This document shows, one piece after another, positions 757 to 5,382 of a stretch of 8,682 nucleotides of DNA. The stretch's first letter is position 1; each line of letters begins with the position of its first letter. Made by a program: the position numbers and the translations under genes. Under the pieces are notes generated by a model that was not told the DNA's origin, searched no databases, and was given only the letters and a program-made list of their open reading frames with translations. Origin of the DNA: a virus (Duplodnaviria; Heunggongvirae; Uroviricota; Caudoviricetes); IMG/VR virus record IMGVR_UViG_2734482774_000009; one strand, written 5' to 3'.

Positions 757-848
757 CCTTAATCATCTGCGTAAACATAAGTAATCATAATGATCATTCA
801 GCCAGCGCAATTTTGAGCTTTGCTTTAATCTCAGTGAGTTACCGCCGC
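757..848. repeat. Direct repeat copy 2 (about 92 bp), abutting the 3' end of the 89-aa minus-strand gene
   Basis: ccttaatcatctgcgtaaacataagtaatcataatgatcattcagccagcgcaattttgagctttgctttaatc... aligns to 636-718. Confidence 0.6.
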
Positions 849-1108
849 AACCGTTCCGGCTTCTTCCAGTGGTACGTGATTTTCTCCTTCTCCCGATACA
901 TCTCCACGCGGCGACGGTATGCCAGCAACTCAAGGACTCTGGTTCGTATGTTGCGCTTAAGCTCAATACCATCACGGCGCATCACCTCAGCAACAACACG
1001 CGCATAATTTTCAGCGGTCACGCTGTCCGGTTGCGTGCCCTGTTCGTCATGCTGCTGGCTGATTCCGGTAACGCGGCGGATTAATCGCAGTAGTTCGGCT
1101 TCTGTCAT
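839..1108 (-). CDS. Hypothetical 89-aa protein with basic C-terminus, located just outside cos copy A
   Basis: ATG at 1108 preceded by GGGGG Shine-Dalgarno on the minus strand; TAA stop at 839-841. No family recognised from sequence. Confidence 0.5.
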   Translation of the reverse strand: MTEAELLRLIRRVTGISQQHDEQGTQPDSVTAENYARVVAEVMRRDGIELKRNIRTRVLELLAYRRRVEMYREKEKITYHWKKPERLRR

Positions 1109-1141
1109 TGTGCCCCCATCGTTCTGATAGCCTGGTGTCGT

Positions 1142-1345
1142 CGGGTCCTTCCTGGAATTATGGCCCGTTACGGGGCGGCGACCTCGCGGTTTTTATCTGT
1201 TTATGAAAATTTTCCGGCAAAAGTCAGATCCGTTCTTCTTCTCTGTAACAGACTGTTTAACAATGAAAATATTAAAAAAAGAAAGGATCTGACACGAGGC
1301 ATTTTAGCCAGAAAATGCCATTATCAGATCCTTTCTCATTTTTGT
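1142..1345 (+). other. cos site copy A: cosQ-like segment, cosN (GGGCGGCGACCT at about 1173-1184), then a lambda-like cosB running rightward
   Basis: ttacg-gggcggcgacct-cgcgg matches the lambda cohesive-end region as recalled. Downstream tatgaaaattttccgg (1202-1217) is identical to the lambda 16-mer; ccgttcttcttc (1230-1241), aaagaaagga (1278-1287) and cctttctcatttttg (1330-1344) resemble lambda R3/R2/R1 Nu1-binding elements. 1142-1188 is one arm of a perfect 47-bp inverted repeat with 2036-2082. Confidence 0.8.
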
Positions 1346-1363
1346 TCAATAATTGCGCTTCTG

Positions 1364-1906
1364 TTACTTGCCTTTCTTCTGTAGCAACTTTTCCGGTACG
1401 TTTCCGGTTGTTTCTTTCAAGTAATCAGCCAGTATCTGTGGGAGGTTGTCGGCAACTCTGGCACTGGCATTACAGGCTTTAACCACTTCCCTTTTAAGCC
1501 TGTCCAGCATGGCGGGGGTAATCTGTGGGAAGCTCCTTTGCATAGTAAGCGGGAGGCTGTCCATGATTGATGAAATCTGACTCGCCAGCTTTGAAAGCGC
1601 GTACAGGCAAAACTCAGTATCAATCACGTCACCGCGATCGCGCTCGTTTTTAAGTTCCTGCGCCTCCGCCTGTGCTGTCAGTAATCTGATCCTGACTCGT
1701 AAGAGTTCATCATCATCAATATCGCCTTTGTCGTTTGTAAGCTGGCTAATTGCATTGTTAACCCTATTGTCTATCACGCTGGCAACATCATAAAACGCCT
1801 CACGGCCTTTACGTTCAACGGGAGTCACTCCCCACTTGTCGAACGCTGTCGCACTTACACGGCAGCTTTTCGCCATGTTTTTTTTGTTCATCAGATGAGA
1901 TTTCAT
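1364..1906 (-). CDS. Terminase small subunit, lambda Nu1-like (180 aa)
   Basis: C-terminal two-thirds aligns closely by eye to lambda Nu1 (LTAQAEAQELKNERDRGDVIDTEFCLYALSKLASQISSIMDSLPLTMQRSFP versus lambda LTRAQADAQELKNARDSAEVVETAFCTFVLSRIAGEIASILDGLPLSVQRRFP); N-terminal HTH-like region is more diverged. Start ambiguous among ATGs at 1906, 1891 and 1876 (no strong Shine-Dalgarno for any); the MNKK start at 1891 aligns best with Nu1 MEVNKK. Confidence 0.85.
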   Translation of the reverse strand: MKSHLMNKKNMAKSCRVSATAFDKWGVTPVERKGREAFYDVASVIDNRVNNAISQLTNDKGDIDDDELLRVRIRLLTAQAEAQELKNERDRGDVIDTEFCLYALSKLASQISSIMDSLPLTMQRSFPQITPAMLDRLKREVVKACNASARVADNLPQILADYLKETTGNVPEKLLQKKGK

Positions 1907-2082
1907 TAATACACCAACTTAATTACTGCTTCAGGTTGGTGTATTGTTTGCATCTTTCCCTTTTCATTCATAAAGATAGAGCAAACAACAAAACCACCAC
2001 CACCCCCCTGAAAAGGCTCATAAATAGCGAAAACGCGCGAGGTCGCCGCCCCGTAACGGGCCATAATTCCAGGAAGGACCCG
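1907..2082 (-). other. cos site copy B (inverted): cosQ-like plus cosN (2040-2051 on plus = GGGCGGCGACCT on minus), with a divergent cosB between cosN and the terS start
   Basis: 2036-2082 is the exact reverse complement of 1142-1188. On the minus strand cosN is followed by cgcgcgttttcgctatttatga (lambda: cgcgggttttcgctatttatga), then diverges. An 11-bp inverted repeat AATACACCAAC / GTTGGTGTATT (1909-1919 / 1935-1945) sits immediately upstream of terS. Confidence 0.8.
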
Positions 2083-2083
2083 T

Positions 2084-2106
2084 AAAAAAGCCGGATTTCT
2101 CCGGCC
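2084..2106 (-). terminator. Rho-independent terminator closing the capsid operon
   Basis: Minus strand reads GCCGGAGAAATCCGGC followed by a T-run (plus-strand aaaaaagccggatttctccggcc). A near-identical hairpin recurs at 4355-4376. Confidence 0.65.
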
Positions 2107-2111
2107 TTGTC

Positions 2112-2525
2112 TCAGATGGTTTTCAGTATGCGATCGATGTCGCCGTCATCGCCCTGGTTTCTGCCATCGTATGCCATGCCAGCTGATACGGCTTGCGGGC
2201 TGTGCATGTCCATAAAGTTTTCAAAGGCTGCGGTAAGTTCCGGCGCAACCTTCGGACGTTCCTGCTCTATGGTCATGCTAAGGATGCTTTTAGCCGTACC
2301 AACATCGATACAAGGCACGTTTGCCATTGCACGCAACAGCGGCTGATAGTCTTTATGCTCATGAAGCGCCATAATCGCATCAGCGCGCGGCTTGTCCTGC
2401 TCTTCCAGTTTGTTTAGTTGATATACGGCCTCATAGGTTGATAAACCTCTGTCAGCCATTGCCCGCGCTTCGGCTTTAAATTTACTCGCCAGCGGTAGCG
2501 TCATGATGCTTTCATTCGTTGCCAT
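2112..2525 (-). CDS. Hypothetical 137-aa protein, last gene of the capsid operon
   Basis: ATG at 2525 with GGGGGA Shine-Dalgarno; 12 bp downstream of the gpD-like stop. Acidic C-terminus (DDGDIDRILKTI). No family recognised. Confidence 0.6.
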   Translation of the reverse strand: MATNESIMTLPLASKFKAEARAMADRGLSTYEAVYQLNKLEEQDKPRADAIMALHEHKDYQPLLRAMANVPCIDVGTAKSILSMTIEQERPKVAPELTAAFENFMDMHSPQAVSAGMAYDGRNQGDDGDIDRILKTI

Positions 2526-4354: not shown

Positions 4355-4376
4355 AAAAAGCCGGATTTTCTCCGGC
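4355..4376 (-). terminator. Rho-independent terminator after the SSB gene
   Basis: Minus strand reads GCCGGAGAAAATCCGGC then TTTTT; 9 bp downstream of the SSB stop. Near copy of the 2084-2106 hairpin. Confidence 0.65.
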
Positions 4377-4384
4377 CTGTGCGT

Positions 4385-5153: not shown

Positions 5154-5382
5154 CTCTACCCATCTACCCGAATGCTCATCATGTCAGTAATGGCGCGGCT
5201 TTCAGCGGGTAGATAGCTTTTTGAGCTCCTCTACCTGCCGTCTACCCTGCTACCTGAAACTGATAAAATCAGGTAGAAGAGGTAGAGAGCTTTTATTAGC
5301 CTTCTACCTGGCCCTCTACCCACTTATCATGTTGAATAATATGTATTTATTTCATTCAGGTAGATGGGGTAGAGGGCTTTTA
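5154..5382. repeat. Putative replication origin: iteron array plus AT-rich segment
   Basis: At least 11 copies of the hexamer core TCTACC / GGTAGA in both orientations within about 225 bp, where about 4 would be expected by chance in the whole window. Three extended copies GGTAGA-nnGCTTTT at about 5208, 5281 and 5368. AT-rich stretch at 5326-5357. Lies immediately downstream of the primase stop (5390). Confidence 0.65.

Follow-up and report, generated by a model that had tools for sequence, protein, structure and literature searches.

A Nu1-family small terminase gene and its candidate cosB box in a cos-type phage-inducible chromosomal island of Escherichia coli

In this work, we analysed a stretch of 8,682 nucleotides (IMG/VR record IMGVR_UViG_2734482774_000009, hereafter the window), focusing on terS, an intact gene for a small terminase subunit of the Nu1 family. 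The gene lies directly downstream of a cosQ-cosN-cosB array, here called cos-R, and reads away from cosN, its ATG being at bp 146 from the cos-R nick (Table 1). The window represents the left two thirds of an island of about 12 kb inserted in tqsA; the closest copy in a complete genome, a ~12-kb island in tqsA, is 99.8 % identical over window positions 1100-2120. The genes of this copy encode an integrase (int), an AlpA-like helix-turn-helix (HTH) regulator, Icd-like and DUF4222 proteins, a helicase (or primase), a single-stranded DNA-binding protein, a 68-aa open reading frame (ORF), a gpE-like capsid protein, a gpD-like decoration protein, a 137-aa ORF, the small terminase (TerS) and a small ORF. 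No large terminase (TerL), portal, tail or lysis genes were found in it, and TerL is also absent from the window; in particular, no partner large terminase gene is present at the 3' end of terS, as expected for the TerS of a satellite. A D5-type primase is encoded within the window, int and alpA lying outside it. This layout matches that of EcCICFT073 and EcCIIHE3034, and the island is a cos-type phage-inducible chromosomal island (PICI) of the EcCICFT073 / EcCIIHE3034 / O-island-51 family. The region is present in about 490 of 5426 complete E. coli genomes (~9 %), including O157:H7 and O145.

Membership of the terS product in the small terminase family is supported by Pfam, PHROG, the profile search of PDB and the predicted fold, which all concur. 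The protein matches Pfam Phage_Nu1 (PF07471) over residues 33-148 (E=2.3e-23, 83 bits for a cut-off of 30) and PHROG 57 'terminase small subunit' over residues 1-174 (E=3.2e-53); its RefSeq label is plainly 'terminase small subunit'. A phmmer search of PDB with the single protein gave no match, lambda TerS being reached by the clade profile only (N-terminal fragment 6hn7_B, residues 6-101, E=0.007). Three parts can be distinguished, i.e. a winged-helix DNA-binding domain of the type found in gp1 of phage N15 (residues ~1-50), a central oligomerisation region (~74-126) and a variable C-terminal helix and tail (127-180). In the AlphaFold2 model, the succession beta-alpha1-alpha2-beta-hairpin-alpha3 forms a winged HTH, with a pLDDT (the per-residue confidence score) of 67-80 in the N-terminal domain; the best Foldseek match is the 54-aa chain 7lwr_A from a study of a viral DNA-packaging motor (TM-score 0.70, root-mean-square deviation 2.0), followed by MerR/BldC-type winged-HTH proteins.

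Table 1. Features of the window around terS and elsewhere in the island
Feature	Position	Strand	Distance from cos-R nick	Description
terS	1364-1906	minus		Intact ORF, 180 aa; Nu1-family small terminase
Proximal arm of inverted repeat	1908-1918		bp 134-144	Overlaps weak Shine-Dalgarno GGTG; lineage-variable
Distal arm of inverted repeat	1935-1945		bp 107-117	Gene strand CAATACACC(A/C)AC; R2-like position and orientation
Private cosB box	1984-2005	minus	bp 47-68	R3 position; window sequence GGGTGGTGGTGGTTTTGTTGTT
cos-R	2040-2081	minus		cosQ-like GGGTCCTT (2074-2081); cosN with lambda cohesive end GGGCGGCGACCT (2051 down to 2040)
cos-L	1143-1342	plus		cosQ 1143-1150, cosN 1173-1184, R3 1223-1240, inverted R2 1276-1293, R1 1324-1342
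76-nt inverted repeat	1142-1217 / 2007-2082			One arm in cos-R
GC hairpin and T-run (GCCGGAGAAATCCGGCTTTTTT)	2084-2107	minus		After the 137-aa ORF, just upstream of cosQ; read directly from the sequence
89-aa ORF	839-1108	minus		PHROG 1561, function not assigned; homologue of last EcCICFT073 gene; forms module with cos-L
137-aa ORF	2112-2525	minus		RefSeq 'head-tail connector'
GC hairpin and T-run	4355-4378			
Iteron-like and inverted repeats	5245-5382			Just downstream of the primase gene
Left-end direct repeats	634-713 and 757-846			~66-90 nt; 89-96 % identical, 123-133 nt apart

The gene is under purifying selection, with a ratio of nonsynonymous to synonymous divergence (dN/dS) of 0.10-0.27 overall, 0.02 in the DNA-binding domain (dS ~0.9) and ~0.2 in the C-terminus and tail; it is intact in the ~490 genomes and has relatives in other genera. 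Over its last 54 codons (127-180, window 1364-1525), synonymous divergence from the genes of three other loci (L079, L054 and L028) rises from 0.06-0.4 to 1.1-1.3, which indicates that the tail is probably a recombined C-terminal cassette and not a segment under relaxed selection, dN/dS there being ~0.2. In some of these comparisons, the rise at the tail starts from a dS of 0.06-0.18. No phage in the collection searched carries a TerS more than 46 % identical overall to that of the island. The best of the phages sharing the C-terminal half (PhiR5_1, PhiR12) are only 53-58 % identical over it, the tail being 50 % identical to that of PhiR5_1, and no helper type could be assigned from the tail.

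An earlier note on this DNA, made from the sequence alone, had pointed out both the ORF and a perfect 11-bp inverted repeat upstream of it, which are real, and had described the protein as a Nu1 homologue with a highly conserved C-terminal region, contacting the large terminase gpA, and a diverged N-terminal DNA-binding region. This contrast disappears on alignment. The identities to lambda Nu1 and N15 gp1 are, respectively, 35 % and 56 % in the DNA-binding domain (lambda residues 1-68), 40 % and 40 % in the linker, 51 % and 51 % in the assembly domain (100-140) and 32 % and 32 % in the gpA-binding tail (141-181); in a six-sequence alignment, the same four regions are 38, 13, 57 and 30 % identical to lambda Nu1, the tail being 72 % similar. 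The gpA-binding tail (30-32 %) is thus no better conserved than the DNA-binding domain (35-38 %), and the best-conserved segment is the oligomerisation region (51-57 % identical, 79 % similar). The earlier note had associated an N-terminus as conserved as the C-terminus, which is what we found, with an ordinary phage Nu1; this does not follow from the failed pattern, because terS lies in a satellite without a large terminase. The N-terminus does differ from that of lambda, with two indels and a Pfam model that aligns residues 33-148 only, but it is not an orphan divergence: it is of the N15 gp1 type (56-59 % identical), with an identical recognition-helix stretch (AFDKWG). Within the satellite clade, the pattern is even the reverse of the one proposed, the DNA-binding domain being nearly invariant and the last ~55 residues the most variable.

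The site that this domain probably recognises lies in cos-R, which points toward terS as lambda cos points toward Nu1. At the R3 position lies a box, hereafter the private box, with the clade consensus CTGGTGGTGGT(T/G)TTGTTGTT (core form GGTGGTGGT(T/G)TTGTTGTT), which is the probable primary binding site of TerS. When all cos sites in the fetched loci were considered, this box was found behind 28/28 window-type TerS genes and behind none of the lambda-type genes or of those encoding Rpp, the 'redirecting phage packaging' protein of EcCICFT073-type islands. Lambda-type DNA-binding domains are associated with a lambda R3 in 38 of 40 cases and with a 21-like box in the other two; all four Rpp genes are associated with a CCACCACCAC box. 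The association between domain and box is thus strict in these loci. In N15, R3 was placed at bp 48-60 by linker scanning (PMC9026076); the private box resembles the sequence found there (GAGGTTGTTGTTT) and sits at a matching position. It also resembles the box TAGTTGTTGTTTTGTTGTTTG that an N15-type helper phage (locus L015) carries at this position. By eye, no integration host factor site could be made out in the interval that separates the box from the distal arm. In Rpp-type islands, the box (CACCACCACCAC, ~bp 52-66; L004:2607-2620) reads as the (GGT)3 portion of the TerS-type box (window 1994-2003) in reverse complement, both boxes being at about equal distance from cosN.

Natural helper/satellite pairs allowed a direct comparison. 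Relatives of TerS at 54-59 % identity (Enterobacter, Citrobacter) are encoded by PICIs inserted within the capsid gene of lambda-like prophages, i.e. helper-embedded PICIs (described as a class in PMC10111431); 67 loci were fetched via the integrase and 13 helper/satellite pairs were compared in detail. The helper Nu1 is 83-99 % identical to lambda Nu1 in 12 of these pairs, that of the L016 helper being divergent, with only its C-terminal part aligning; the nine helper TerLs extracted are all gpA-like. The helper R3 is of the lambda type (CGTTTCCGTTCTTCTT, bp 53-68) in 11/13 pairs and a 21-like box in two (L016, L070). The embedded satellites, for their part, carry a window-type TerS with an N15-like DNA-binding domain, and their own cos has CTGGTGGTGGT(T/G)TTGTTGTT at bp 48-68. 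Since satellite and helper carry different TerS DNA-binding domains and boxes, the TerS/cosB pair of the satellite appears to belong to another specificity class than that of its helper, as packaging redirection requires. Conservation of the tail was not recovered with the actual helpers either: between a satellite TerS and the Nu1 of its own helper, identity is 29-39 % in the DNA-binding domain, ~50 % in the assembly domain and only 29-39 % in the tail.

Two satellite proteins combine lambda-like and satellite-type parts. In L021 (19196-19750), the DNA-binding domain and linker are 97-99 % identical to those of its lambda-type helper and are followed by a satellite-type C-half, the cos having a lambda-type R3; in L064 (17891-18390), a window-type DNA-binding domain is joined to a lambda-like C-half (80 % / 66 % identical to its helper). 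Both are evidence that satellite TerS proteins may be mosaic, i.e. built of exchangeable modules. As a separate observation, the cohesive end in many helper-embedded satellites (L020, L022, L028, L047, L052 etc.) is GGGCGTCAGGCG or GGGCGGAAGGCG, whereas that of the helper is GGGCGGCGACCT; these 12-nt ends mismatch at several positions, though one TerL would have to cut both.

The inverted repeat AATACACCAAC / GTTGGTGTATT, with its 16-nt spacer, ends 1 nt before the terS ATG and is statistically unusual, perfect repeats with arms of 11 bp or more and loops of 3-30 nt averaging 0.066 per dinucleotide shuffle of the window (any in 5.4 % of shuffles). The earlier note took it as a possible TerS binding site or autoregulatory operator; in this reading, the satellite cosB would be defined by it. 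This reading is consistent with the location of the repeat inside cosB, where it mirrors in position and orientation the inverted R2/R1 pair of lambda (R2 at ~bp 100-115, inverted relative to R3 and R1; PMC9026076 and lambda sequence), with the resemblance of each half-site to the N15 R3 core GTTGTTGTTTA (8/11 positions, by eye) and with the distal arm, whose sequence and position at a fixed distance from cosN are kept in nearly the whole satellite TerS clade. Outside the window / O157 / O145 / IHE3034 lineage, however, the palindrome is not perfect. There, the DNA-binding domain remains nearly invariant, whereas the proximal arm is changed (8-9/11; GTTGTGGTATC, GTGGGGATATT or GTTGGGATATT in other E. 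coli islands) or absent (Enterobacter-type islands), and a T-to-C change in the distal arm is uncompensated in the proximal one; within the window, the half-site GTTGGTGTATT is not over-represented outside the repeat. What stays invariant together with the DNA-binding domain is the GGTGGTGGT..TTGTTGTT box, which lies at R3, the position critical to function, and N15, which has the closest DNA-binding domain among characterised phages, needs R3 only (PMC9026076). The palindrome therefore does not hold as a conserved determinant, and we consider it unlikely that it defines the satellite cosB; the R3-position box would be the better candidate for the specificity determinant, an R2/R1-like auxiliary role being plausible for the repeat. 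The repeat could also act as an RNA hairpin in the terS leader, masking the weak Shine-Dalgarno sequence and the start region and limiting translation, with no part in DNA recognition. The 81-nt leader indeed folds at -18 kcal/mol (z = -2.8), with an 11-bp stem that ends 1 nt before the AUG and covers GGUG. A conserved RNA role is nevertheless disfavoured because covariation is absent: no compensatory changes were observed, and other lineages have a 2x2 internal mismatch in the stem or no stem at all. As the distal arm is conserved even where its partner is missing, which points to a role at the DNA level, we regard the hairpin explanation as quite improbable.

Based on these comparisons, we propose, with a probability of about 0.6, that TerS is a cos-type packaging-redirection small terminase, which would bind the private box through its N15-type domain and bring the gpA of a helper phage to cosN. 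Redirection to a satellite-specific cosB had been put forward in the earlier note; it finds support in the PICI context devoid of TerL, portal and tail genes and in the differences between helper and satellite boxes, whereas the argument from a conserved gpA contact fails. We infer both DNA binding at the box and the recruitment of the helper TerL. TerS would be made after induction and would bind the private cosB of the island beside cos-R, with the GGTGGTGGT(T/G)TTGTTGTT box as primary site, the distal arm as a possible inverted R2-like auxiliary site and the proximal arm as a possible R1-like site in the lineage of the window only. Once bound, it would position the gpA-type large terminase of the helper on cosN, and island concatemers would be cleaved, their packaging into heads made by the helper proceeding leftward through terS. 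The helper Nu1, which reads TTTCCGTTCTTCTT R sites, would not recognise the private cosB of the island. To recruit the helper TerL, the protein might contact it directly, via a C-terminal helix that is homologous though divergent, or rely on mixed oligomers formed with helper Nu1. Direct binding of gpA would be favoured by the full-length architecture and by a tail with 72 % similarity to that of lambda and under purifying selection; the conserved oligomerisation region, the lack of covariation between tail and helper and the mosaic satellites L021 and L064 would favour mixed oligomers.

Several observations weigh against this proposal. The tail homologous to the gpA-binding segment is just 29-39 % identical to that of the true helper's Nu1. 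Besides, the satellite tail did not co-vary with the TerS tail or the TerL N-terminus of the helper, in a comparison based on one non-lambda helper pair (n=1): the helper of L016 differs in both, yet its satellite has the same tail type as the satellites of lambda-type helpers. The loci behind the association between box and TerS type are phylogenetically non-independent, and the AlphaFold2 model is only modestly confident, with a low score for the whole chain (mean pLDDT 62). A consensus scan found no sigma-70-like promoter between the upstream terminator-like hairpin and the terS ATG. Finally, in the sole published test, TerS-encoding islands (IHE3034, 18098) failed to transfer after mitomycin C induction of resident prophages (PMC6092414).

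Part of these data would also be explained if TerS acted like Rpp, i.e. if it co-assembled with helper Nu1 via its central oligomerisation region, did not engage TerL itself and poisoned the recognition of the helper cosB, the mixed oligomer, in which the helper Nu1 tail holds gpA, being directed to the private cosB. The position of terS in the exact RppA slot between two inverted cos sites fits this scenario, as do the conservation of the oligomerisation region (51-57 % identical, 79 % similar), higher than that of the gpA-binding tail (30 %), and the lack of covariation of the tail with helper type. The L021 protein keeps the DNA-binding domain of the helper (99 %) together with a lambda-type R3, yet it has a satellite C-half, which suggests that this half may have a satellite-specific role other than changing DNA specificity. 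However, TerS shows no sequence similarity to RppA (BLASTP E=1.3) and no match to RppC in PDB (phmmer, profile search). It has the full-length Nu1 architecture, whereas Rpps are proteins of 135-154 aa devoid of a TerL-binding tail (PMC9026076), and its own tail is 72 % similar to that of lambda and under purifying selection; moreover, Rpp contacts the N-terminal domain and alpha3 of TerS and not the assembly domain (PMC9026076). We therefore hold an Rpp-like action to be possible, although rather unlikely. Far less credible is that terS is an ordinary phage Nu1 gene in a decaying prophage, with no satellite function: its product is a bona fide Nu1-family member and is labelled as such in RefSeq, but this reading is contradicted by the complete PICI layout without TerL, by a gene kept intact under purifying selection in ~490 genomes and in other genera, by relatives residing in satellites inside intact lambda-like prophages that have their own Nu1, and by the absence, in the collection searched, of any phage TerS more than 46 % identical.

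Tentatively, the TerS-type cos PICIs might be mechanistically distinct from the Rpp-type ones, TerS acting as a modular hijacker with two functions: the cosB would be set by a DNA-binding domain that can be exchanged (of the N15 type or, as in L021, that of the helper), and a satellite-specific C-half, which is swapped through recombination, occurs on different DNA-binding domains and does not follow the helper, would capture or poison the helper terminase. If so, the island could be packaged without helper Nu1 while helper packaging would be blocked, and the private cos and a second, swappable public cos would provide two independent routes into helper capsids.

This second cos (cos-L) flanks terS on the other side, in inverted orientation to cos-R, the two sites sharing the 76-nt inverted repeat (Table 1). 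Its R sites are lambda-spaced, all with a CAGATCC(G/T)TTCT core; the same R-type is found in prophage SerU-LTIIb. It is equivalent to cos2 of EcCICFT073, an island ending in the same module order, in which RppA (144 aa) occupies the TerS slot between the inverted cos1 and cos2. The type of the second cos differs between islands: it is GATCC-type in the window, 21-type in EcCIIHE3034 (L082:9680-9950) despite an identical cos-R, and CCGGACAT-type in EcCICFT073 cos2 (L004:3140-3340). This suggests that each island may combine one private cos, matched to its TerS or Rpp, with one swappable, helper-mimicking public cos. The finding that only cos1 depends on RppA (PMC6739421) agrees with such a scheme.

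The closest known counterpart is EcCIIHE3034 (listed together with EcCI18098 in PMC6092414), whose TerS is identical to that of the window at 179/180 positions and whose cos-R, private box, inverted repeat and layout are the same. The two islands differ in insertion site (cspD-clpS for EcCIIHE3034, tqsA for the window island) and in the second cos, 21-type in the former and GATCC-type in the latter. EcCIIHE3034 was stated to 'encode TerS' and did not transfer in the assay (PMC6092414). The RppA/B/C proteins of EcCICFT073-type PICIs (PMC6739421, PMC9026076) are encoded, like the window TerS, in the slot that follows the capsid module and is bracketed by two inverted cos sites. They share with it an N-terminal winged HTH and, if our proposal is right, the outcome, namely the redirection of packaging to a cosB that is specific to the PICI and acts at the R3 position. 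They are shorter (135-154 aa reported, 144 aa for RppA) than the window TerS, whose 180 aa align with Nu1 to the tail end, and lack the Nu1 oligomerisation region and the gpA-binding-like tail, both kept in the window TerS; the cosB box is CCACCACCAC in Rpp islands and (GGT)3..TTGTTGTT in the window.

Among characterised phages, N15 has the DNA-binding domain closest to that of TerS, 56-59 % identical in gp1, and a G/T-rich, GTTGTTGTT-type R3 at ~bp 48-68, its cosB having this single R3 (PMC9026076). The C-half of N15 gp1, unlike that of TerS, is lambda-like (76-80 % identical to Nu1) and its gene overlaps the N15 TerL gene; the C-half of the window TerS is 30-51 % identical to both N15 and lambda, and no TerL accompanies it. 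With lambda gpNu1, TerS has in common the family, the three-part architecture, the cosQ-cosN-cosB-terS order and an identical cohesive end (GGGCGGCGACCT); it differs by an overall identity of 35 %, two indels in the DNA-binding domain, which is of another specificity class, different R sites and the lack of an adjacent gene A. The logic is that of the TerS of Staphylococcus aureus pathogenicity islands (SaPIs), in which the TerS encoded by the satellite works together with the TerL of the helper and is specific to satellite DNA (PMC6092414, PMC10085698). This is an analogy only; SaPI TerS serves headful/pac packaging, whereas the window island is of the cos type.

The gene itself is already catalogued: the island is published, RefSeq annotates a small terminase, and SatelliteFinder treats the small terminase as a core PICI component and uses TerS as a marker (PMC10085698). 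TerS-encoding E. coli PICIs were listed as early as 2018, TerS being recorded for the IHE3034 island, with the near-identical protein (179/180), and for the 18098 island, and not for CFT073 and O42 (PMC6092414); the idea is thus not new in kind. In the searchable literature, we found catalogue-level mentions only and no functional study of a Nu1-type TerS in Gram-negative PICIs. The present analysis places the DNA-binding domain in the N15 class, adds the private box at the R3 position, demotes the palindrome as specificity determinant and provides evidence of a modular protein. The current explanation for the cos-type PICIs of E. coli is Rpp, a protein dependent on the helper TerS, and the literature describes EcCICFT073-type islands as devoid of terS; in about 9 % of the complete E. 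coli genomes, the TerS version is present in its place. Should TerS work with helper gpA on its own, SaPI TerS would have its counterpart among cos phages, and a second packaging-specificity class (N15-like) would be directed against lambda-type helpers. Such autonomy would bear on which phages mobilise these virulence-associated islands, and the site prediction (1984-2005 box, not palindrome) makes the question directly testable.

Other features of the island concern its remaining modules. The 89-aa ORF was considered as a possible Rpp and rejected, as it matches neither RppA nor any PDB entry. In a naturally occurring protein (P0087, 232 aa), the initial ~130 residues of TerS are fused to this PHROG 1561 protein, which corresponds to the loss, by deletion, of the TerS tail together with the second cos. 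The GC hairpin and T-run located just upstream of cosQ resemble an intrinsic terminator and are conserved in CFT073 and IHE3034, although a consensus scan did not flag them. A second hairpin of this kind lies further to the right (Table 1). Of the head-maturation-protease profiles, the 137-aa ORF matches no more than the ~70 residues at the C-terminal end (PHROG 53, positions 495-567), and it would thus be a Nu3/scaffold-like fragment and not a connector. The replication origin of the island is probably formed by the iteron-like direct repeats (TCAGGTAGA.G.GGTAGAG.GCTTTTA), spaced by 87 nt, and the inverted repeats that lie just downstream of the primase gene. Finally, two direct repeats are present at the left end of the island, the second of which overlaps the 3' end of the 89-aa ORF.

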